From an uncultured Actinomycetes bacterium (GTDB lineage Bacteria; Actinomycetota; Actinomycetes; UBA12327): a DNA stretch of 64,000 nt. Positions 7,786 to 63,048 of the stretch are shown piece by piece; within the stretch, counting starts at the first letter, position 1, and each line of letters opens with the position of its first letter. Where the stretch lies: positions 27,165-91,164 of the forward strand of contig CAIXNN010000036.1 of NCBI GenBank assembly GCA_903920865.1, written 5' to 3'. The position numbers and the translations under genes are program-made. A model generated the notes under the pieces. The model made no database searches, was not told the origin of the DNA, and saw only the letters and a program-made list of their open reading frames with translations.

Positions 7786-8418
7786 TTAGGTGATTAAGCC
7801 GGCTCGAAGAGCCAGGACCACCATCTCGGCGCGGTCTCCAGTTCCAAGCTTGCGGGCAATGCGCGCAAGGTGACTTTTAACCGTCAATGCTGACAGACCC
7901 AAGGCTTGTGCGACGTCGCGATTTCCTTGACCTTCTGCCACAAGATGTAGAACTTCAATTTCTCGATCTGAGAGTCCATCGGGTCCGATCGGATCACTGG
8001 TTTGGGGAGTGATGATGGTGACGTTGCCCGATAGTGGACGCGCTTGAATGCGTTCTGGATGGGTCACAACGTAACCGTGGATGCCAGCAGCTAAGGCAGT
8101 GCGCACCGAGGATGCGTCATCACTTGGCCCTAGAACAACCCCGCGCTGCCAGCCAGCTCGTCGAAGTTCGGTGACCAGTGCCACTCCACTTCCATCGATC
8201 AACGTGCTATCTGCAATGACTAAATCACCTGGATCAATGGTCAAAGATTGGGAACGAGCTCCGGCCAGGCTTGTGGTTTCAAAGATTTCTCGGGCCCCAA
8301 GGGAGTGCAACCGACGAACCAGCGCACCACGAACGGCAGGGCGACTAACTGCAACAAGGGCAGTAAATTGGCCCGCACGATTGACCGGGATCAGAGGGCG
8401 CTCCGACAGGGCGGTCAT
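7786..8418 (-). CDS. LuxR-family transcriptional regulator (GerE-type HTH, receiver-like N-terminus)
   Basis: C-terminal LSDREIEVLHLVAEGQGNRDVAQALGLSALTVKSHLARIARKLG is a classic LuxR/GerE HTH. The N-terminal ~120 aa are receiver-like, but I could not confirm a phospho-acceptor Asp. Confidence 0.75.
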   Translation of the reverse strand: MTALSERPLIPVNRAGQFTALVAVSRPAVRGALVRRLHSLGAREIFETTSLAGARSQSLTIDPGDLVIADSTLIDGSGVALVTELRRAGWQRGVVLGPSDDASSVRTALAAGIHGYVVTHPERIQARPLSGNVTIITPQTSDPIGPDGLSDREIEVLHLVAEGQGNRDVAQALGLSALTVKSHLARIARKLGTGDRAEMVVLALRAGLIT

Positions 8419-8504
8419 AGGGCTCCTCCCAAACTGATGGACAAACGTGTCACGGTGTCACGTCGCCTAACCAGTATCGGCATGAGCAGGAGGGTTCTTG
8501 AGGC

Positions 8505-9098
8505 CTAATTCCGCCGTGGTTGAAGGGGAATGGTGGCCACACCAGGCGGCAAATTCTCAAGCCCTGCGGCGGTGGCCATCAGGTCAATCCACGCGCTCAG
8601 GTGCCCACCCATGGTGGTCGGGGCGGTGAGCCCGTCGGGGGTCCAAGATGCCCGCACCTCAAGGTTGGCTTCCGGGGAGCGGTCTTCAAGTTCCCCAAAG
8701 GATTGGGAGCGCACCTGAGTCACGGTGCCACCCAACATGGAAAATTCGCATTCGTGAGTTTCTAACGCTTCAGTAAGCCACGACCAGCCAACCTCATGGG
8801 CCATGGGATCGGCGGCCATTTCGGCTTCTATGTCTGCTCTTACAAAGGTGACAACGCGAAATGTTCCGTTCCATGAACTGTGCCCATCGGGATCATGCAG
8901 TAGAACAAATCGTCCCGTGCCGATGTCTTGATCATCGATGACAACATCTGCGGTGAGTGCCACCGAAAAGGGAGCAAGTCGTTGTGGGGCTGGCGCTTCA
9001 TCAAGCAAAATTTCTGGACGAACTCGCACCGATCGCATGCCATCAAGGGCAACCCGAAAAGGCTCTGGAGCATCTTCTTGTGGGGCCGGCGCGTTCAT
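8505..9098 (-). CDS. Conserved actinobacterial hypothetical protein (DUF3000-like)
   Basis: 197 aa. Motifs LAPFSVALTADV...GRFVLLHDPDG...VVTFVRADIEAEM resemble the DUF3000 family, which lies near rnd/dxs in mycobacteria. This assignment is from memory. Confidence 0.5.
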   Translation of the reverse strand: MNAPAPQEDAPEPFRVALDGMRSVRVRPEILLDEAPAPQRLAPFSVALTADVVIDDQDIGTGRFVLLHDPDGHSSWNGTFRVVTFVRADIEAEMAADPMAHEVGWSWLTEALETHECEFSMLGGTVTQVRSQSFGELEDRSPEANLEVRASWTPDGLTAPTTMGGHLSAWIDLMATAAGLENLPPGVATIPLQPRRN

Positions 9099-9200
9099 TA
9101 CTCACAGAGTAGGTCGCGCTGGCTGTTGAACTGTAGAACCGACCGTGTCGCAGGGGTGCGGCGTGTCGGATCAACCGGTGGCCGCCGATAGCCTCAGGGC

Positions 9201-10088
9201 ATGCCAGTCCTGCTTGCTCTGTTCTCAAGTGCATTGTGGGGAACTGCTGACTTCCTTGGTGGGAACCTGACCAAGAGGATGTCCAGCTATGTGGTGGTCG
9301 GCTGGTCACAAGCCTTCGGTCTGGCTTCTGTAGTCCTGATTTGCTCAACCTTCCATGGCTGGGGTAACTGGGCCTCGGTGCTGTGGGTGGGCGTAGGCAC
9401 CGGCGTCAGCGCGTACTTCGCGTTGGTGTTCTTCTACTCAGCGTTGAGTCAGGGAACGATGGGTGTGGTTGCTCCTATTACGGCAACAGGTGCCGTGGTT
9501 CCGGTGCTCTTTGGCCTACTCACCGGCGATAAGCCTTCTTGGTTGCAGGGGGCCGGAATAGCCGTGGCTTTCATTGGAGTCATAGCTGCTAGCGGCCCAG
9601 AAATCTCCGGTCGGAACGAATCGGGATGGCGGCCACTTGTTCTAGCTGGTTTATCGGCCATCGGATTTGGAGTGGCTCTAAGTTTTCTTGCCGTCGGCAG
9701 TCGCACAGACGTGGTGGCCACCCTTGGTGTTGAACGCGTAGTCACTGTTGGATTAGCTCTGGGCAGTTTGGCCGTTGCACTGATTCGCCAGCGATCTGGT
9801 CATGGTGGAAAAGGTTCAGTTCTGACTCGGGCTCGAGATTTAGTTGCACTGTCGAGGCCGGACGTGGTGGCCACAGCCGCTATTGGAATCTTTGACATCG
9901 GCGCAAACATTGCTTTTGGTGTCAGTACGACTTTGGGTCTTTTGTCCATTGTCGCCATTGGCGGATCGCTTTACCCGGTGGTGACGGTGATTTTGGCCGG
10001 AATTGTTTTGAAAGAGCGATTGGCCAGAATTGAAAAAATCGGTGTGAGTTTGGCGTTACTTGGAGTGTTGTTGATCTCGGCTGGCTGA
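9201..10088 (+). CDS. EamA/DMT-family transporter
   Basis: 295 aa with ~10 hydrophobic segments in two repeated halves, typical of the drug/metabolite transporter superfamily. Confidence 0.75.
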   Translation: MPVLLALFSSALWGTADFLGGNLTKRMSSYVVVGWSQAFGLASVVLICSTFHGWGNWASVLWVGVGTGVSAYFALVFFYSALSQGTMGVVAPITATGAVVPVLFGLLTGDKPSWLQGAGIAVAFIGVIAASGPEISGRNESGWRPLVLAGLSAIGFGVALSFLAVGSRTDVVATLGVERVVTVGLALGSLAVALIRQRSGHGGKGSVLTRARDLVALSRPDVVATAAIGIFDIGANIAFGVSTTLGLLSIVAIGGSLYPVVTVILAGIVLKERLARIEKIGVSLALLGVLLISAG

Positions 10089-12450: not shown

Positions 12451-12869
12451 TGATTCAAGTAACCATGATGCTGTGTGACTACGCCCAAGTTGCAGATGGC
12501 AAGTTGTTCATCAACGGAGCCGGTTGGTCGCTGGTTGATTCGCATACTCCACCGTGTGCCATCGCCATGATCGTGATGGTTCCTTGGGATCGCGCTGGCA
12601 CCCCTTTGGAACTTGACCTGGCCCTGATTGATGAAGATGGCAGGGCCGTGGTGCAAGGCACTGATGAGGCTGTTAATCCGATCCGCATTAATGTGCGCAT
12701 TGAAGTCGAACGGCCGGCGGCACAACCTGCTGGCGTTCCTATTGATGTTCCGCTCGCGCTCGGGATTCCGCCGCTTCAGCTATCGCCCTATGGCCGCTTT
12801 GCGTGGCAATTAAGCATTGATGGCCAACAGCGGGAGGAATGGAATTTAGCCTTCTCCACCCGCGCCTAA
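12450..12869 (+). CDS. Hypothetical protein, translationally coupled to the lipoprotein gene
   Basis: The ATG at 12450 overlaps the upstream stop (TGATG). The 139-aa product has a coding-like composition (MIQVTMMLCDYAQVADGKLFINGAGWS...). No assignable family. Confidence 0.45.
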   Translation: MIQVTMMLCDYAQVADGKLFINGAGWSLVDSHTPPCAIAMIVMVPWDRAGTPLELDLALIDEDGRAVVQGTDEAVNPIRINVRIEVERPAAQPAGVPIDVPLALGIPPLQLSPYGRFAWQLSIDGQQREEWNLAFSTRA

Positions 12870-13681
12870 TGCTCTGATTCGACGTGAGCTAGGAACTGGC
12901 CAATGGCGTCCGAAAAGAGCTTCTTGTGCTCGCGGCCGGCCACCACGTGGGGGAGATTGGCAATGACCAAACCTTGGGCACCAGGGATGGCCTGTTCGAG
13001 AGGCGTAGTCAGACGCGTACCTGTGAGAAGGTCCGCGTCCGCGTGGATGACAAGTGTGGGCGCGGTGATTTCTGACAGTCGCGAGCGTGCATCGTGGGTC
13101 ACCGTTGCTTCCACGATGCGGGCCATGCCCTCAAGGTTGTTGTTTAAGTGCGACCACGGGCCCTGTTCACCCAGAAATGAGTCGGCGCGTTCGTTGTAGT
13201 AGTCCGGGTCAAAACACCATTGCGCGCACAGTTGTTGAAATTTTAAGAACCCTTGAGTTTGTGCAATCTCAAGCAAGGTGTTCATTTGATCAGTGAAGAG
13301 TCGATCCGGGCCGACCCAACCGCCCGACATGGTTAACGACCGCACAAGTTCTGGATGGTCGATGGCTAGCCACTGTGCAACGCACGCGCCAATGCCCACA
13401 ATGCCGACGATGTGCGCGGGTGTTCCGCCGACGTGGTTCAGCACCGCGGCTGCATCAAGGGCATGCGCGCGCGTGGTGGCTGCGATCTGCGCGCTGTCTG
13501 TGCTTTGTCCCAGCCCGCGCCAATCGATCAAAACCACGCGTCGGCCCTCAGCTACGGCCCAGGGAACTTGGGCAAAAGCGCCATCGGTGTAGGTGCCCCA
13601 GCCGACCATGACCAGAACCGTGGGACCTTCGCCGTGGACCTCGTAGTAGATGTCCACACCTTGGCTGCTAATCGTTGGCAT
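12866..13681 (-). CDS. Alpha/beta-fold hydrolase
   Basis: Start taken at the internal Met (MPTISSQGVDIYYEVHGEGP...). HGEGPTVLVMVGWG and the nucleophile-elbow-like GIVGIGACVAQ are typical alpha/beta hydrolase features. Confidence 0.75.
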   Translation of the reverse strand: MPTISSQGVDIYYEVHGEGPTVLVMVGWGTYTDGAFAQVPWAVAEGRRVVLIDWRGLGQSTDSAQIAATTRAHALDAAAVLNHVGGTPAHIVGIVGIGACVAQWLAIDHPELVRSLTMSGGWVGPDRLFTDQMNTLLEIAQTQGFLKFQQLCAQWCFDPDYYNERADSFLGEQGPWSHLNNNLEGMARIVEATVTHDARSRLSEITAPTLVIHADADLLTGTRLTTPLEQAIPGAQGLVIANLPHVVAGREHKKLFSDAIGQFLAHVESEH

Positions 13682-13786
13682 GGGGCAATTGTGCCGACCG
13701 CCTGATCTGGCTGTGATCGTGCCTAGAAAAAAAATTCGGCGGCCAAAACAGGGATCACTGTCAGTGGGTCCTGTCATGATTTGGAC

Positions 13787-13806
13787 TTAGCGCAAATCTG
13801 CGCTAA
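13787..13806. promoter_or_regulatory. 20-bp palindrome TTAGCGCAAATCTGCGCTAA abutting a TAACAT -10-like hexamer
   Basis: Perfect 8-bp inverted arms with a 4-bp spacer, 43 nt upstream of the 13850 ATG. GGGAGGAG RBS follows. Candidate operator overlapping the promoter. Confidence 0.4.
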
Positions 13807-13849
13807 CATGGTCTAGCTGGCACAAGCTGGTCAGACGGGAGGAGCACAG

Positions 13850-14731
13850 ATGAAATTTCCAACGTTGCATGTGGGTCGGGGTAGCCAAGTCGGGCCTTTG
13901 ACAGTTTTCCCACTGTGGGCAAACAAGCCCGCGCCGACGAAGCGCTTTTTCAGCAACAAGTCAGGGTCCTTGGCGGTCGCCGAACGCGAAGGCGCACCGG
14001 TGGTTGGCGAACTAGTAGTGAGCAACAACAGTGACGCGCCGGTTCTGCTGTTGGCTGGCGATTTACTTGAGGGTGGTTGGCAGCATCGTGTGATTTCCGA
14101 GCCAGTGCTCATCGCGGCCGGTGCATCAGAAGTAGTCAATGTCAATTGCGTCGAACGTGGTCGTTGGTCTGGTGCCGGGGAGCAGATCAACCGTGGACGT
14201 AAGACTGGTCCACGCCTTCGTTCCAAACTTGAAGCGTATGAACAACTCAAGCAACAAGAAGTCTGGGCAGAAGTTGATCGTTTTTCCACCTCCCAATTCA
14301 CTTCCAAGACTGCCTCTTACATTGACTACTTGAACTTGGTGGAGGAGCAGGCCGTGGGTAGCGACGTACGCCCGCTCGATGGTCAAGTAGGAGTTGTTGT
14401 GGCGGCAAATGGTCACCCGGTCATGCTTGAGGTTTTCGCCACGCACGAAGATTTGGTGCAGGCCTGGGACGCGCTCATTGGCGGCGCCTTGGCAGATACT
14501 CGTGGGGTTCGCTCCGTGCGCACTCCGTCTCGACGCATCCACCGCTTCATTGACGGTTTGGAGTCCGTTGAGCTCAGCCGCAGTTCCAAAGCTGGTTTGG
14601 CCGACAAGGTGGTCGGTCAAGGTGAGGCCGAGGGCTTATTCACCTCGATTTCGTGCGTGGAATGGGATGAGGAATTGGTGCACCTGCTGGTTCTGAATCA
14701 GCGCCACGATCTGTTTGCTGACGCGATCTAA
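13850..14731 (+). CDS. Hypothetical protein (293 aa), family unknown
   Basis: ATG with strong RBS GGGAGGAG. Coding-like composition. No catalytic or binding motif I recognise; no TM segment or signal peptide. Confidence 0.6.
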   Translation: MKFPTLHVGRGSQVGPLTVFPLWANKPAPTKRFFSNKSGSLAVAEREGAPVVGELVVSNNSDAPVLLLAGDLLEGGWQHRVISEPVLIAAGASEVVNVNCVERGRWSGAGEQINRGRKTGPRLRSKLEAYEQLKQQEVWAEVDRFSTSQFTSKTASYIDYLNLVEEQAVGSDVRPLDGQVGVVVAANGHPVMLEVFATHEDLVQAWDALIGGALADTRGVRSVRTPSRRIHRFIDGLESVELSRSSKAGLADKVVGQGEAEGLFTSISCVEWDEELVHLLVLNQRHDLFADAI

Positions 14732-14769: not shown

Positions 14770-15141
14770 TTGGTTGTGGGCTGGCAAATTAGGCGCTCAA
14801 AGTACTTTGGGCCATTTCGAGTTTCGCTGACCAAGCGTGGTCTTTCGGGTTCGGTTGGTATCCCAGGTTTTCGGATGTCAACAAATACCCGTGGCCAGGT
14901 GCGGCGAACTGTTCGCATTCCTGGAACTGGTATTTACAACACCAAAATTCTGAACCCCAAAAGCTCTTCGAGTGCGGCCCGAAAGTCCAAGGCGCCAAAA
15001 AGGGCACCTGCCACTGCCACGCAGGCACACCCCGAACAACCACCACCGCCATCGGCACCAGCCAGTTGGTATCCAGATCCGCAGGGGGTTGCCACCTGGC
15101 GCTGGTGGGATGGCCAGGTCTGGACTCAGCACACGGCCTAA
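14770..15141 (+). CDS. DUF4236-like N-terminal domain fused to a DUF2510-like C-terminal motif
   Basis: TTG/GTG start region 14770-14776. N-terminus RRSKYFGPFRVSLTKRGLSGSVGIPGFRMSTNTRG...IPGTGIYNT fits the DUF4236 pattern. C-terminus WYPDPQGVATWRWWDGQVWT is the DUF2510 motif. A Pro/Lys-rich linker separates them. Confidence 0.65.
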   Translation: MVVGWQIRRSKYFGPFRVSLTKRGLSGSVGIPGFRMSTNTRGQVRRTVRIPGTGIYNTKILNPKSSSSAARKSKAPKRAPATATQAHPEQPPPPSAPASWYPDPQGVATWRWWDGQVWTQHTA

Positions 15142-15276
15142 AGAAACTCCTGTGCTGTCGGACCCTTGTTCTATAGTTGCAAACAGGTTATGAGTGAGCG
15201 TCGCATGTGGCCCCTTGGCCTTGTCGCTTCAGCAACCGCGCTTTCCCGCGCACGGTGCTTCCAAGGGTTAAACCGG

Positions 15277-15302
15277 CCGGGGAAGCCAATTGGCTTCCCC
15301 GG
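15277..15302. promoter_or_regulatory. Perfect 26-bp palindrome CCGGGGAAGCCAATTGGCTTCCCCGG; a second hairpin follows at 15309-15330
   Basis: Reverse complement is identical to the forward sequence. It lies 48 nt upstream of the phosphatase ATG and 135 nt downstream of the preceding stop. The next hairpin is GGGTTTTCTGCTGTGAAAACCC. Confidence 0.5.
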
Positions 15303-15350
15303 AAGCGCGGGTTTTCTGCTGTGAAAACCCTGATCGAAAGTTGATTTGTT

Positions 15351-15887
15351 ATGTCATCTGATGATGCTTTAGATGGTTTGTCCCCGCAATGGGTCGGCGC
15401 TGAAGACCTGGAATGGCTGCCTCATGAGATCTTGCCGAATCTGTTTATGGGCGGCACCGGTGATCTTGATGTGGTCACGGTTCCTAAGGACAATCCGGAC
15501 CTTATCGCCAATCATGGCTTTGACGCGGTGGTGACTTTGTATGCGCGAGCTCAACCGGTTGGCTGGGGAGTGGTGGAGCATCGTTTTGGTTTTCCCGATT
15601 CAATGCTCGCTCCCAAGGACAAGGGTCGAATCATTCAAGCTGCTCGCTGGACTCATGAACGTTGGAGTTCAGGCGATCGTGTCTTGGTTCGCTGTCAGGC
15701 GGGTTTGAATCGTTCGGGATTGGTCTTAGCTCTTGCATTGATGATCGAGGGATACACGGCCCAGGATGCAATCGAGTTGCTACGCCAACAGCGTTCGGAG
15801 TTCGTGCTGTGCAATCGCCAATTTGAACGCTGGGTGCAGACCGACGCACATGCTGACCTCTTTGGACAGGATGCGGACGGTGAGTGA
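15351..15887 (+). CDS. Small dual-specificity/tyrosine-type protein phosphatase (CX5R)
   Basis: 178 aa. The active-site P-loop VRCQAGLNRSG is C-X5-R followed by S/G. A candidate general-acid Asp sits in GFPDSM ~36 residues upstream of the Cys. Confidence 0.7.
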   Translation: MSSDDALDGLSPQWVGAEDLEWLPHEILPNLFMGGTGDLDVVTVPKDNPDLIANHGFDAVVTLYARAQPVGWGVVEHRFGFPDSMLAPKDKGRIIQAARWTHERWSSGDRVLVRCQAGLNRSGLVLALALMIEGYTAQDAIELLRQQRSEFVLCNRQFERWVQTDAHADLFGQDADGE

Positions 15888-16254
15888 AGTTTTGACGAAC
15901 TGTCGAGTCCATGGGGCGGGGCACTTCGGACACATGATGCACGAGTGGAAGGTGGTGGGGCCACTTACTGCCAAGCCCCTGCACAAGCGTGGTGTTGAAG
16001 TGCTCTGCCTTGAGGTGGTCGATGTGGTCAGCGACGAAAAAGGGGAATTCGCCATCGTCGAACTCGAGCGCATCGACGGCAAGCTCTTTGCTGGCTTTAC
16101 CCATCGGCCGGCGGACTTGATCAAACACATTGAACACGGGCACCCAGCGGTGTTTAAGAAGGGGATCGGGCGCCTGTTTTTTGAAACCGAGCACTTCATG
16201 ATCTCGAAAGTTCGTGATTTTAAGGATCGTGTGCCCTGCGCCCATGACGTCTAG
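15871..16254 (+). CDS. Hypothetical His/Cys-rich protein, translationally coupled to the phosphatase
   Basis: ATG 15871 overlaps the phosphatase 3' end by 17 nt. The 127-aa product has CRVHGAGHFGHMMHEW, HIEHGH and a C-terminal CAHD, suggesting metal binding. The antisense ORF 15631-16245 has a shadow-like Arg/Pro/His composition. Confidence 0.4.
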   Translation: MRTVSEVLTNCRVHGAGHFGHMMHEWKVVGPLTAKPLHKRGVEVLCLEVVDVVSDEKGEFAIVELERIDGKLFAGFTHRPADLIKHIEHGHPAVFKKGIGRLFFETEHFMISKVRDFKDRVPCAHDV

Positions 16255-16671: not shown

Positions 16672-16749
16672 TGGTGGGCGATACAGGACTTGAACCTGTG
16701 ACCTCTTCCGTGTCAGGGAAGCGCGCTAGCCAGACTGCGCCAATCGCCC
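16672..16749 (-). tRNA. tRNA-Val (anticodon GAC), CCA encoded
   Basis: Cloverleaf read by hand: acceptor GGGCGAU/AUCGCCC, anticodon stem-loop CUUCC-CUGACAC-GGAAG, T-arm GGUUCAAGUCC, discriminator A plus CCA. Confidence 0.85.
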
Positions 16750-16750
16750 G

Positions 16751-16821
16751 AGGTGGAGACGGGATTTGAACCCGTGTAGACGGCTTTGCAGGCCGTTGCC
16801 TCGCCTCTCGGCCACTCCACC
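16751..16821 (-). tRNA. tRNA-Cys (anticodon GCA)
   Basis: Acceptor GGUGGAG/CUCCACC, anticodon loop CUGCAAA, T-loop GGUUCAAAUCC, discriminator U. No encoded CCA. Confidence 0.85.
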
Positions 16822-16848
16822 GCAGAATAAGCCCGAAGGCTTCATCCG

Positions 16849-16921
16849 AGCGGACGACGGGATTCGAACCCGCGACCCTCACCTTGGCAAGGTGATGCTC
16901 TACCAACTGAGCCACGTCCGC
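16849..16921 (-). tRNA. tRNA-Gly (anticodon GCC)
   Basis: Acceptor GCGGACG/CGUCCGC, D-arm GCUCAGUUGGUAGAGC, anticodon loop UUGCCAA, T-loop GGUUCGAAUCC. The spurious ORF 16394-16915 runs through the cluster. Confidence 0.85.
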
Positions 16922-19908: not shown

Positions 19909-19983
19909 GGGCGATTGGCGCAGTGGTAGCGCGCTTCGTTCACACCGAAGAGGTCACTGGTTCGAACCCAGTATCGCCCACCA
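19909..19983 (+). tRNA. tRNA-Val (anticodon CAC), CCA encoded
   Basis: Acceptor GGGCGAU/AUCGCCC, anticodon loop UUCACAC, T-loop GGUUCGAACCC, ACCA 3' end. The spurious ORF 19923-20156 covers it. Confidence 0.85.
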
Positions 19984-20080: not shown

Positions 20081-22273
20081 CTACACCGCTGAAGCTTTCG
20101 CGCGGGCCTGCGCGGCAAGTGCTGCGCAGTGCGGGCAGTTATCGCCGCGCACATGAATATCCACGGGGCGAGGAGTCCACGATCCGTCGGCACCGTTTTC
20201 GCACGCCAGACAGCGCGCCGCAGTTGGGGTGTCATCGCTCTTGGGGTTTGCCAGCCACGTGAACGCCCCGTCGAGTGGGTCCTCTTTCGGCGTTGGTTGC
20301 CGCGCGCGCGAGACCAGATCGGCCACGACCGCAGCATTTTGAAGCGTGGTGATATCGCCCAAATCTCGACCTTCGCTGATGTCGCGCAGAAGACGTCTCA
20401 TGATCTTGCCCGAACCGGTCTTGGGCAGTTCATCGGTGATCACAATGGAGGACGGCCTGGCAAAGCGACCGATCCGACCGGCCACGTGATCGCGCAGTTC
20501 GGTGATCAATTCATCGCTTGGTTCAACCGAGTTCTTGAGCGTGACGAAAGCCGCGATTGACTGACCCGTCATTGGATCTGCACGACCAACTACCGCCGCC
20601 TCTGCCACCGCGTGGTGATCTAGAAGAGCGGCTTCGAGCTCAACGGTTGAGAGGCGATGGCCTGACACGTTCATCACGTCGTCGATGCGACCGACAACCC
20701 AGATGTAGTCATCGTCATCACGCCTTGATCCGTCGCCGGCTAGGTATCGCCCTGGGTATTGCGACCAGTAGGTCTTCAGATAGCGCTCGTCGTCACCCCA
20801 CAGCGTTCGCATCATCGCTGGCCATGGGCCATCAAGCATGAGCAAACCGCCCTGGCCTGATTCGACACTTGTGCCATCCTCATTGATGACGTCTGCGCGG
20901 ATGCCCGGCAGCGGGAATGTGGCTGAACCAGGCTTGAGTGGAACCGCCCCTGGAAGCGGAGCGATCATGATCATGCCGGTTTCGGTTTGCCACCACGTGT
21001 CGACAATGGGACAGCGCCCACCGCCGACGTTGGTGTAATACCAGTCCCAGGCTTCGGGCTTGATCGGCTCACCCACCGAACCCAGCAGACGCAGTGACGT
21101 GAGGTCGTGCTTCTGGAGGTGTTCAACCCCCCACTTCATGAAGGTGTGGATAGCAGTAGGCGCGGTGTACAGGATCGTCACGCCGTAGCGCTCGATGATG
21201 CTCCAAACGCGATCTTTGTCCGGTGTGCCAGGTGCGCCTTCGTACATGACTCCTGTGGTGCCGTTGGCTAGCGGGCCGTAAACGATGTAACTGTGACCGG
21301 TAATCCAACCGATGTCGGCCGCACACCAGTAAATGTCATCACTATGGATGTCGAAGACCTGGCGATGAGTCGTGGAGACACCGACGAGATATCCGCCGGT
21401 GGTGTGCAAGATGCCTTTGGGCTTTCCAGTGGTGCCGGAGGTGTAGAGCACGAAGAGGGGATCTTCGGCATCCATCGGTTCGGGATCACAGGTGTCAGGC
21501 TGGTTCGCAACGAGCTCGTGGTACCAGTGATCGCGTCCATCAACCCACTCAACGGGGCTGCCCGTTCGTCGAGTGACAACGACGTTGGTCACTGAAGGAC
21601 AGGTCAGGAGCGCTTCGTCAACTGGCCCCTTGAGCGCAATTGAGCGGCCGTGCCGCCACGACTCGTCCTGCGTGATGACTGTGGTGCAGACCAGGTCGTT
21701 GATCCGGTCAGCGATTGCGGTGGGACTGAATCCAGCGAAGACGACGGTGTGAGGTGCCCCGATGCGTGCGCAGGCCAGCATGGCAACCGGTAGTTCAGGG
21801 ACCATGCCCATGTAGATCGCCACGGGGTCGCCCTTGCGAACGCCCAATTCCCGCAGCGCGTTGGCCATGCGACAGACGCGAGCATGCAGGTCCAGGAAAG
21901 TGATCGACTCGGTTTCGCCGGGCTCACCTTCCCAAAAGTAAGCAACCTGGTCACCCTTGGTGGGAAGGTGACGATCAAGGCAGTTCACCGACACGTTCAA
22001 TTTTCCATCGACAAACCACTTGTAGAACGGAGCATTGGAGTCATCGAGCACCTGAGTCCAAGGAGATATCCAGTCGATGCTTTGAGCCTGTTCGGCCCAG
22101 TAGCCCGTGAGGTCCTGTTCGGCCTGCTTGTAGAGCGAGCGGTCGGTGATCGCCGAGTGGGAGACGAACTCGGCCGAGGGCGCAAACATGTGATCATCGG
22201 TTTGGATGACTTCGATCAGTGGACCGCTTTGCGTTGTCAAATCTGGCGCATCGGAGCCGGGCCTTTCAGCCAT
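20081..22273 (-). CDS. acs: Acetyl-CoA synthetase (AMP-forming) with a ~70-aa C-terminal Cys-containing extension
   Basis: AMP-binding core (YTSGTTGKPKG, PKTGSGKIMRR with the conserved regulatory Lys). After LGDITTLQNAAVVADLV the ORF continues ~72 aa with CLACENG...(21 aa)...CPHC. Confidence 0.9.
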   Translation of the reverse strand: MAERPGSDAPDLTTQSGPLIEVIQTDDHMFAPSAEFVSHSAITDRSLYKQAEQDLTGYWAEQAQSIDWISPWTQVLDDSNAPFYKWFVDGKLNVSVNCLDRHLPTKGDQVAYFWEGEPGETESITFLDLHARVCRMANALRELGVRKGDPVAIYMGMVPELPVAMLACARIGAPHTVVFAGFSPTAIADRINDLVCTTVITQDESWRHGRSIALKGPVDEALLTCPSVTNVVVTRRTGSPVEWVDGRDHWYHELVANQPDTCDPEPMDAEDPLFVLYTSGTTGKPKGILHTTGGYLVGVSTTHRQVFDIHSDDIYWCAADIGWITGHSYIVYGPLANGTTGVMYEGAPGTPDKDRVWSIIERYGVTILYTAPTAIHTFMKWGVEHLQKHDLTSLRLLGSVGEPIKPEAWDWYYTNVGGGRCPIVDTWWQTETGMIMIAPLPGAVPLKPGSATFPLPGIRADVINEDGTSVESGQGGLLMLDGPWPAMMRTLWGDDERYLKTYWSQYPGRYLAGDGSRRDDDDYIWVVGRIDDVMNVSGHRLSTVELEAALLDHHAVAEAAVVGRADPMTGQSIAAFVTLKNSVEPSDELITELRDHVAGRIGRFARPSSIVITDELPKTGSGKIMRRLLRDISEGRDLGDITTLQNAAVVADLVSRARQPTPKEDPLDGAFTWLANPKSDDTPTAARCLACENGADGSWTPRPVDIHVRGDNCPHCAALAAQARAKASAV

Positions 22274-22377
22274 CAGTTACCTCGTAGGGTCATCGTTCCC
22301 GTACGAGAGACCGTCCGGCTCTCCCGTTGATTCTCATTCAATCGGAAATGCAAGGACGGCGCAAGCAGGTTGGCAAT

Positions 22378-23073
22378 CTACGACGATGTTGAGGAAACTG
22401 CTCGAGCGATAAGTACCGTCAGCATGCTCACGGCTAACAGCACTTGGAATGCCATAACGAGTTTGCCCACGCGAGACATGATCGCCTCAGAGGTTGGCCC
22501 ATAGGTTGAGTTGACGTTGAGGGAAATAAATAAGTAGTCAAGGAAGTTTGGTGTGGGCGGCTTTTCGCCTTCGCGCGCGGGCCAGACGAATGCTCCACCC
22601 GGGGTGGTGACGTCAATAAAGATGTAGACGAACGTAAAGACCAGCACGCTCATCAGGTAGACGAGGCCGACGTCCCACAAAGAGGTGAGTCCGCCACCTT
22701 GATGGGCGTTGGCGGTTCCCAACATGGAGATCACGTTAAGCACAACCTGGAAAACGGCGTATGCCAAGTAAACGGCAATGAATTTCGACAACGTGACAAA
22801 TTTGTCAGCCAGAATCGCGTAGATCATGATGCAGCTCGAAATGACGAAAAGGAACGTCCCGAAGAGTTCAAGGTTGTCGAAAAGCTTCAGCTCTGAGGTG
22901 ATGTAGCCACCATGAATCAAGTGTCGAGTCAGCAACGTATGGAGAAACCAAATCAGAACCAAGGCGCCAACAAGTCCAAAGCGGCCTTTGCCGTGGTGCA
23001 GTTGAGCCCAAAATTCTTGTGCGGGTGCTAACTCGGAGGTCATGGCAGCGCTGTCGTCTTTATCGTGTTCCAC
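22378..23073 (-). CDS. Hypothetical integral membrane protein
   Basis: 231 aa with about 5-6 hydrophobic segments. Lower-GC codon usage than its neighbours, judged by eye. Family not assigned. Confidence 0.5.
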   Translation of the reverse strand: MEHDKDDSAAMTSELAPAQEFWAQLHHGKGRFGLVGALVLIWFLHTLLTRHLIHGGYITSELKLFDNLELFGTFLFVISSCIMIYAILADKFVTLSKFIAVYLAYAVFQVVLNVISMLGTANAHQGGGLTSLWDVGLVYLMSVLVFTFVYIFIDVTTPGGAFVWPAREGEKPPTPNFLDYLFISLNVNSTYGPTSEAIMSRVGKLVMAFQVLLAVSMLTVLIARAVSSTSS

Positions 23074-62737: not shown

Positions 62738-63048
62738 GACCAATTTAAGGCCGGCTTCGTGGCCACTTTTGTGCCTGCAGGGCCCGATTTTCGTGCCTAG
62801 CGGCTCGGATCGGGAAAATTTCTCAAAAAACTTGTGAAAAAGCACTCAAGGTTTTCACCCAACTGGGCGAAGTAATACCTGTCAGTGAGCTACCCGGCCA
62901 GAAAGGGCACACCCACCGAGAGGTGGGGTCGCAAAGCCAGGGGACCGCACCCGCGGTCAGCCCAGCTACCTCGGTTGGTACTTCGAAAGAAGCACCGGTG
63001 GGGACCAGAAGCCGAAGCTCTAGGTTCACCCAGAAAGGGACCATCCCG

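Follow-up and report, generated by a model that had tools for sequence, protein, structure and literature searches.

An ARPP-1 family gene under a conserved, predicted NrtR-type operator in an uncultured actinobacterium

A stretch of 64,000 nucleotides from an uncultured Actinomycetes bacterium (assembly GCA_903920865.1, contig CAIXNN010000036.1), hereafter the window, was analysed around a 293-aa open reading frame (ORF) and the 20-bp palindrome that precedes it (Table 1). Profile and sequence comparisons identified the ORF as a full-length protein of the ARPP-1 family (PF20208, DUF6569) and the palindrome as a conserved cis-element of ARPP-1 loci. The explanation favoured here, with a probability of about 0.7, is that the ARPP-1 gene is controlled through this operator by an NrtR-like repressor which would be released by an ADP-ribose-type ligand. 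Comparative genomics has already described this system, of which the locus is an ordinary example with two modest twists: the operator is kept without an adjacent regulator or ARG gene, and a SAM-IV riboswitch stands in front of the partner phosphatase gene.

Results

The ORF encodes an ARPP-1 family protein

The ORF was present on the forward strand with the clean ATG and the strong ribosome-binding site (RBS), GGGAGGAG, that a preliminary description of the window had reported. In the alignment of the window's clade, which comprises relatives with 89–91% identical ARPP-1 from other metagenomes and metagenome-assembled genomes (MAGs; loci L005, L010–L012, L167 and L195), the RBS reads GGGAGGAG or GGCAGGAG. 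The same description had considered the protein orphan-looking, unless a confident match to a known family came up. Such a match was obtained with Pfam PF20208 (182.5 bits, E = 1.5e-53; cut-off 27), and it covers the full length of the family, residues 6–281 being aligned with profile positions 2–296 of 297. A word-indexed search returned 271 relatives, all of which carry PF20208 and, where a name is given, belong to the DUF6569/ARPP-1 family. When 1.84 billion cluster representatives were searched exhaustively, the set grew to 4,876, 905 and 74 relatives at E <= 1e-3, 1e-10 and 1e-30, respectively. The protein is thus no orphan; it belongs to a known family which has been characterised by computation only.

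The window protein retains all 12 columns that are invariant in an alignment of 32 sequences (among them G70, G75, Q78, R80, C100, V101, E102, G104, R105, W106 and G181). These residues make up the motifs GGWQHR, with Q78, and CVERGRW, with C100 (CVExGRW in the family). Where no catalytic motif could initially be named, there is consequently a conserved set that includes the family's invariant Gln and Cys. According to section 3.8 of Iyer et al. (2022; PMC9503650), the ARPP-1 domain is characterised by an absolutely conserved cysteine and glutamine, and its action on ribose or ADP-ribose moieties has been proposed there.

An AlphaFold2 model of the protein reached a pLDDT of 90.2 and a pTM of 0.90. 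Its secondary-structure string predicts a beta-rich region at residues 41–100 carrying Q78 to C100, and a four-strand meander at residues 242–283. The lack of a transmembrane segment, signal peptide or P-loop noted earlier fits the sequence as well as the compact, confidently modelled globular fold. A sequence search of the PDB gave noise only (E >= 0.13), and Foldseek did not find a match for the model in the PDB at E <= 1e-3. The remote-homology search and structure prediction that had been advised therefore delivered the family, PF20208, without any solved structural relative. The protein did not match NCBIfam, PADLOC or PHROGs, PADLOC being without a model for ARG/ARPP systems, and no paper on DUF6569, PF20208 or the 'ARPP-1 family' was found in the library searched.

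The palindrome is conserved upstream of ARPP-1 genes

The palindrome is made of two 8-nt arms, TTAGCGCA (13787–13794) and TGCGCTAA (13799–13806), which are 100% complementary and separated by the spacer AATC. The perfect inverted repeat and the TAACAT hexamer at its end were both confirmed as first described (Table 1). The 20-mer occurs once in the window, where 0.26 matches with at most three mismatches are expected by chance. In Markov-1 simulations, chance alone accounts for about 12 perfect 8+8 inverted repeats in 64 kb and about 0.03 in an intergenic region of 168 nt. Together, the putative -35 hexamer TTGGAC and TAACAT match only 7 of 12 consensus positions. TAACAT does fit T-A-N-N-N-T, the actinobacterial -10 consensus.

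Within the clade both half-sites are invariant, while one spacer base (AATC/AAAC) and the flanks vary and the region around is about 77% identical. The -10 pattern is kept as well, with changes at the inner bases (TAAAAT in L001 and L012; TAAACT in L005, L010, L011, L167 and L195). What had been described as a repressor-controlled promoter is hence borne out, at the level of sequence comparison, as a phylogenetically conserved operator over a predicted core promoter in the clade.

Beyond the clade, 80 ARPP-1 loci from named actinobacterial genomes, obtained with 15 closer sequences as the query, were scanned for the operator. Allowing up to four mismatches, 26 kb of upstream DNA contained the motif 55 times, versus 28 times for 888 kb of background. 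A position weight matrix (PWM) was then derived from 37 unique sites that precede ARPP-1 genes. Its half-site reads T-T-A-G-(C/a)-(G/t)-C-(A/g), and the 4-nt spacer is uninformative. At a PWM score of at least 20, 49 sites lie upstream of ARPP-1 versus 4 elsewhere in about 880 kb. The operator was present in 37 loci at this threshold and in 43 at a score of at least 14, at distances of 27–99 bp 5' of ARPP-1, and it occurs in tandem in 12 loci, mostly 24 bp apart. With a score of 33.3, the window site compares with a median of 31.9 for the 37 unique sites, and NrtR<>ARPP-1-ARG loci share the motif. Sites at other positions are partly meaningful: one in L020 lies about 130 bp before an ARG/phosphatase match, and two in L007 precede the gene before ARPP-1.

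The motif was also found upstream of ARPP-1 genes with just 31–48% identity. One of them (L006, 48% identical) is followed by ARG genes and has two operator copies directly upstream, where none is expected by chance. The first, aTAGCGCA-AGAG-TGCGCTAA, lies within the 17 nt between TTGACG and TAACTT, the same architecture as in the window, and the second, TTAGaGCA-AAGA-TGCGCTAA, is immediately 5' of the RBS. Separately, an apparent ARPP-1 and ARG fusion was observed in this locus (8001–9413, P0004), with a C-terminal half that is of low complexity and looks frameshifted, and a second ARG gene comes after it; adjacent genes may have been joined here artificially, by misassembly or a frameshift.

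A search for further copies that could define a regulon, as suggested in the preliminary description, was run and yielded no second site in the window. Among the matches listed in a metagenome-wide scan for the exact motif, most came from unrelated organisms (22–73% GC), and no regulon emerged for this genome. In L119, L153, L157 (Ga0256405_10000826) and L208, the palindrome pattern is present many times per low-GC contig and represents an unrelated dispersed repeat.

The operator accompanies NrtR-like genes in related loci

A tblastn panel showed that the typical cluster is arranged as nrtR-like <operator> ARPP-1 - ARG, the ARG often carrying a C-terminal rhodanese-phosphatase-type domain. 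The divergent gene of these relatives, at -640 to -930, encodes about 230–250 aa with a Nudix (PF00293) and a WHD_NrtR (PF21906) domain, which is the NrtR architecture. Where at least 1 kb of DNA was available upstream, 26 loci combine the site with a divergent NrtR-like gene, 6 have the site only, 16 the NrtR-like gene only and 25 neither (Fisher odds ratio 6.8, p = 3e-4, uncorrected for phylogeny). Four of the six loci with the site only belong to the window's clade, and the other two are L006 and a weak case; the loci with the NrtR-like gene only belong to divergent regulator clades. In Micromonospora-type NrtR clades a related variant with N5 spacing, TTAGCGCG-N5-CGAGATAA, is present at the same position.

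The metagenome-wide scan added at least four loci in which the motif adjoins an NrtR-like gene and no ARPP-1 was detected. Two of them (L108, L206) are arranged as NrtR<motif>ARG-phosphatase, and in two others (L174, L209), on short contigs, the motif stands beside NrtR. As the motif stays next to NrtR-like genes in loci without a detected ARPP-1, it tracks the regulator. Genes of PF03747 that follow ARPP-1, or are apparently fused to it, under the same operator were seen in L006, L008 and about 46 fetched loci. In L008 and about ten ARPP-1-ARG loci of Nocardioides/Janibacter type, neither an NrtR-like gene nor the motif was observed. Directly upstream these loci have instead a conserved gene in the same orientation (7216–7926 in L008), which encodes about 236 aa without a Pfam match and is a candidate alternative regulator or partner.

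According to Rodionov et al. (2008; PMC2330246), NrtR proteins are repressors that dissociate from DNA in vitro in response to ADP-ribose. Table 1 of that work lists an actinobacterial group 2b, 'nrtR2<#>nrtX-nrtY', with function unassigned, and predicts for Streptomyces a split arrangement in which nrtR2 and nrtX-nrtY occupy separate loci, each with a site. Group 2b is probably the same system as the one considered here.

Downstream genes and a SAM-IV riboswitch

The coordinates of the features at the locus are collected in Table 1. The gene with DUF4236 and DUF2510 domains follows ARPP-1 after 38 nt with no terminator-like site in the gap, and from this arrangement the two genes are probably co-transcribed. 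It is restricted to the clade and evolves fast, with 55–65% amino acid identity versus 88–91% for ARPP-1 and the phosphatase. Its product matches phrog_33669 (E = 7e-19), i.e. it has phage homologues. The gene was called in L005 and missed by the metagenome gene caller in L001–L004.

Table 1. Features of the ARPP-1 locus (positions in the window)
Feature	Position	Strand	Remarks
alpha/beta-hydrolase gene, divergent	12866..13681	-	PF00561, E = 2.5e-14; context only
Putative -35 hexamer TTGGAC	13781..13786	+	Predicted; 17 nt 5' of TAACAT; TAGGAC in clade relatives
20-bp palindrome TTAGCGCA-AATC-TGCGCTAA, predicted NrtR-type repressor site	13787..13806	.	Perfect inverted repeat, conserved
Putative -10 hexamer TAACAT	13804..13809	+	Predicted; covers the last three bases of the right half-site
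RBS GGGAGGAG	13837..13844	+	5 nt 5' of the ARPP-1 ATG
ARPP-1 gene (PF20208 / DUF6569)	13850..14731	+	293 aa, ATG start
DUF4236 + DUF2510 gene	14770..15141	+	123 aa, TTG start; PF14020 E = 9e-13, PF10708 E = 1e-7
SAM-IV riboswitch aptamer (RF00634)	15186..15313	+	55.5 bits vs gathering 38, E = 2.2e-8, full-length model 1-116
Cys-based dual-specificity/protein tyrosine phosphatase (PTP)-type phosphatase gene (rhodanese-phosphatase superfamily)	15351..15887	+	178 aa; PF00782 DSPc E = 2e-9, PF00102
124-aa ORF, membership uncertain	15880..16254	+	Overlaps the phosphatase stop by 8 nt; called in metagenome assemblies

The 209-nt spacer behind this gene holds the SAM-IV riboswitch and is better conserved in the clade than the gene itself. 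The aptamer ends 38 nt before the phosphatase ATG, and its Rfam score, 5' position and actinobacterial host all agree with the assignment. It is kept in L005, L010, L012 and L167 at 48–52 bits and has a stable predicted fold (z = -3.65). SAM-IV riboswitches usually precede genes of sulfur and methionine metabolism, so that the phosphatase looks like an unusual target. The riboswitch was found before the phosphatase in the window's clade only; other loci that encode this phosphatase subtype do not have it there. Another SAM-IV element was observed in L078 (3774–3888), where it precedes an ORF of 137 aa that lacks an annotation and lies about 2 kb 5' of an NrtR<>ARPP-1 cluster; a comparison of that ORF with the 124-aa ORF of the window found no homology between them.

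The CX5R loop of the phosphatase, RCQAGLNRS, is intact, and the CX5R and FPD loops align with those of the archaeal PTP 5z5b (E = 4.6e-7). Genes for the same subtype directly precede ARPP-1 in L040 and L083; in L078 and L079 they form part of NrtR<>ARPP-1-vWA-DSPc-...-deacetylase clusters. By this recurrent gene linkage, the DSPc phosphatase subtype is a genuine partner of ARPP-1. The 124-aa ORF that follows did not match Pfam or PHROGs and was found in the clade only.

Surroundings of the locus

The divergent alpha/beta-hydrolase gene occupies the position that nrtR has in related loci. One-base indels in the clade between 13682 and 13777 argue against a start of this gene at 13777 and for one no higher than 13681. 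The same intergenic region as the operator contains a block, CGTGCCTAGAAAAAAA (~13718–13733), which is invariant in the clade and has the arms of an imperfect inverted repeat on either side, CTGGCTGTGATC / GATCACTGTCAG (13707–13718 / 13753–13764). This feature (13707–13764) may serve the hydrolase gene as promoter or as regulatory site.

The locus is located among core genes (dxs, msrB, pabB and tRNAs). A tRNA cluster, Val(GAC)-Cys(GCA)-Gly(GCC), lies just downstream on the reverse strand (16672–16921), and a tRNA-Val(CAC) was found at 19909–19983 on the forward strand. An origin as a genomic island beside the tRNA cluster was considered and rejected: base composition is flat across the locus, which gives no sign of a recent island. 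A gene for a 449-aa protein with nuclease-type domains (SNIPE / T5orf172 / MUG113) was observed in L001 (17650–18999), about 7 kb downstream of ARPP-1; by offset it corresponds roughly to positions 21500–22850 of the window, and it could be mobile or defence-related. A c-di-GMP-I riboswitch (RF01051) was detected at 62896–62973 on the forward strand (55.5 bits vs gathering 35). Finally, six freshwater actinobacterial MAG contigs (L010, L014, L016, L027, L040 and L088) bear the title 'Bifidobacterium breve', which looks like a mislabelling in view of their gene content and their close similarity to Actinomycetota/Nanopelagicales contigs.

Discussion

Comparison with known systems

Section 3.8 of Iyer et al. 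(2022) places the ARG/R-P/ARPP systems under negative regulators of Nudix- or WYL-helix-turn-helix (HTH) type. The window locus shares with them the full-length ARPP-1 profile, the invariant Cys and Gln, the actinobacterial host, a predicted negative-regulator operator upstream and the linkage to a rhodanese-phosphatase-type phosphatase, here two genes downstream. A beta-rich protein whose conserved residues sit in an inserted stretch of beta structure would also agree, as judged from the secondary-structure string of the model. In contrast to those systems, the locus has no ARG, chaperone, effector or adjacent Nudix regulator gene. Its phosphatase is a stand-alone DSPc subtype with weak similarity to the ARG-fused/L009-type domain, is preceded by its own SAM-IV riboswitch, and is separated from ARPP-1 by the inserted DUF4236/DUF2510 gene. 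The window likewise differs from clusters of DraG/ARH-type (PF03747), e.g. nrtR1-draG of Streptomyces, by having no PF03747 gene within 64 kb. By its gene content, the lineage of the window carries a reduced version of the cluster, with neither an ARG nor a regulator gene in 64 kb and the phosphatase two genes downstream. Iyer et al. drew an analogy to the SRAP domain, in which a Cys covalently captures a sugar lesion; the invariant Cys in a pocket-like motif and the proposed ribose target would fit this analogy, whereas no relationship in sequence or fold was found between SRAP and the window ARPP-1.

With the NrtR family (PMC2330246; MsNrtR, Gao et al., 2019, PMC6800001) the locus has in common a palindromic operator in the promoter region, and related loci form a divergon with a Nudix and winged-helix gene. 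It differs in that the target is not a gene of NAD biosynthesis and that the regulator gene was not seen in the window.

Proposed mechanism

In the proposed mechanism, a dimer of an NrtR-like repressor would bind the palindrome. As no regulator gene is present within 64 kb, this repressor must act in trans. In the clade the operator is predicted to fill the spacer between a weak -35 hexamer (TTGGAC) and the -10 hexamer (TAACAT), and to overlap the latter, so that RNA polymerase would be kept off the promoter while the repressor is bound. Release by ADP-ribose or a related nucleotide, the ligand class known for NrtR proteins, would then switch on ARPP-1, probably along with the DUF4236/DUF2510 gene. 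Following the published proposal, ARPP-1 would act on ribose or ADP-ribose through the invariant Cys100 and Gln78. The model suggests that these lie in a beta-rich insert together with Arg80, Glu102, Arg105 and Trp106. The phosphatase might then remove a terminal phosphate from the ARPP-1 product.

Several observations weigh against this mechanism. ARG, the core enzyme of the published model, is missing from the window by tblastn with two ARG queries. A profile of 36 NrtR-like proteins did not detect any NrtR-like ORF in the window at E <= 10, and the family defined by Nudix and WHD_NrtR is abundant (3,668 matches) with this organism's copy not singled out, so the regulator is presumed. The window also has no adjacent Nudix-HTH repressor, the divergent neighbour being the hydrolase; no search was aimed at WYL regulators. 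The operator, 20 bp in an 8-N4-8 arrangement with the half-site TTAGCGCA, differs from the NrtR boxes described in the cited work, a 21-bp palindrome with a GT-N7-AC core, and its N4 spacer differs from the N7 spacer of the mycobacterial box GTTTTCGA-N7-TCGAAAAC. The overlap of the operator end with a -10 element (TAANNT) was tried as a family-wide rule and rejected, since it applies to 6 of 44 sites, which is about chance. A generic sigma-70 scan called no promoter at the palindrome, which leaves the promoter as a prediction; as a chance palindrome is moreover not very improbable, the case for function rests on the comparative evidence. Finally, a phosphatase with its own regulator, SAM-IV, makes a single co-regulated unit less likely.

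Alternative explanations

That the palindrome does not bind a protein at all, being a chance repeat, the remnant of a regulation since lost or a hairpin in DNA or RNA such as a terminator, is highly improbable. The expectation of about 12 perfect repeats per 64 kb, the lack of a cognate regulator gene at the locus and the exact copies of the 16 specified bases scattered in unrelated metagenomic organisms would suit such a view, but half-sites that are strictly conserved within surroundings of about 77% identity, with variation confined to the spacer, and that recur upstream of ARPP-1 genes only 31–48% identical, speak against it. A terminator was rejected because the flanking genes are divergent and there is nothing to terminate; the stem is not followed by a T-run either, and no terminator was called at the palindrome. 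It is quite unlikely, too, that a real operator is bound by a regulator outside the NrtR family, either by an unrecognised factor or by the LuxR-family protein with a GerE domain encoded 5.4 kb upstream (7786–8418), which the preliminary description had named as a candidate. The distance of the motif from published NrtR boxes, the window's lack of an NrtR-like gene and the synteny of the GerE gene in the clade point in this direction. Yet the GerE gene accompanies the motif in five loci that are all synteny copies of the clade and never outside it, and it was rejected as the regulator on this ground. Across genomes the motif instead tracks the Nudix and winged-helix NrtR-like gene, which is divergent from it in 26 loci and adjoins it even where ARPP-1 was not detected; the motif also drifts together with the NrtR clades, and the separation of nrtR2 from nrtX-nrtY already predicted for Streptomyces (PMC2330246, Table 1) offers a precedent for a regulator encoded elsewhere.

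The biological role of the system is a separate matter. With the same mechanism, the locus could serve housekeeping, its ARPP-1 and phosphatase processing endogenous ADP-ribose, NAD-derived metabolites or endogenous reversible ADP-ribosylation instead of countering ADP-ribosyltransferases of phages; this is a possibility of some weight, although not the favoured one. Its position among core genes (dxs, msrB, pabB and tRNAs) without compositional anomaly, the absence of a PADLOC match and of an effector nuclease, ARG or chaperone gene at the locus, and the control of the phosphatase by a metabolite riboswitch agree with it, as does the mainly metabolic content of NrtR regulons, among which the 'nrtX-nrtY' unit is listed (PMC2330246). 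With its core context, its metabolite riboswitch and neither an ARG nor an effector gene, the reduced version indeed leans towards a housekeeping or stress role. On the other side, the wider contexts of the family (variable vWA, restriction endonuclease and chaperone modules, rapid turnover) have been read as hallmarks of conflict systems (PMC9503650), L006 and L008 are found among helicase, HNH and DUF4357 genes, and the fast-evolving DUF4236 partner has phage homologues.

A more specific version of the proposed mechanism would be an ARG-less module with two sensors, in which ARPP-1 is under a trans-acting NrtR-type sensor of ADP-ribose and the phosphatase under SAM-IV; taken as a whole, this is rather unlikely. 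If it were true, ARPP-1 would act on its own as an enzyme or binding protein instead of assisting an ADP-ribosylglycohydrolase, with its site at Cys100, Gln78, Glu102 and Arg105 in a fold without a solved relative, and the processing of ADP-ribose adducts would be coupled to the S-adenosylmethionine (SAM) status of the cell.

Significance

ARPP-1/DUF6569 counts thousands of representatives with an invariant Cys/Gln site and no solved structure. The proposal of 2022 is that ARPP-1 acts on ADP-ribose in systems that undo ADP-ribosylation by phages (PMC9503650). Current views are not overturned by the present analysis, whose value is that of a well-defined test case and not of a discovery. It adds an explicit operator consensus for NrtR-like paralogues, TTAGCGCA-N4-TGCGCTAA, often in tandem, which serves regulon prediction and the design of electrophoretic mobility shift assays, and an unexpected SAM-IV riboswitch before the partner phosphatase. 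It also adds a naturally minimal version, in which ARPP-1 has neither an ARG nor a regulator gene beside it; this would be a cleaner start for defining ARPP-1's own role.

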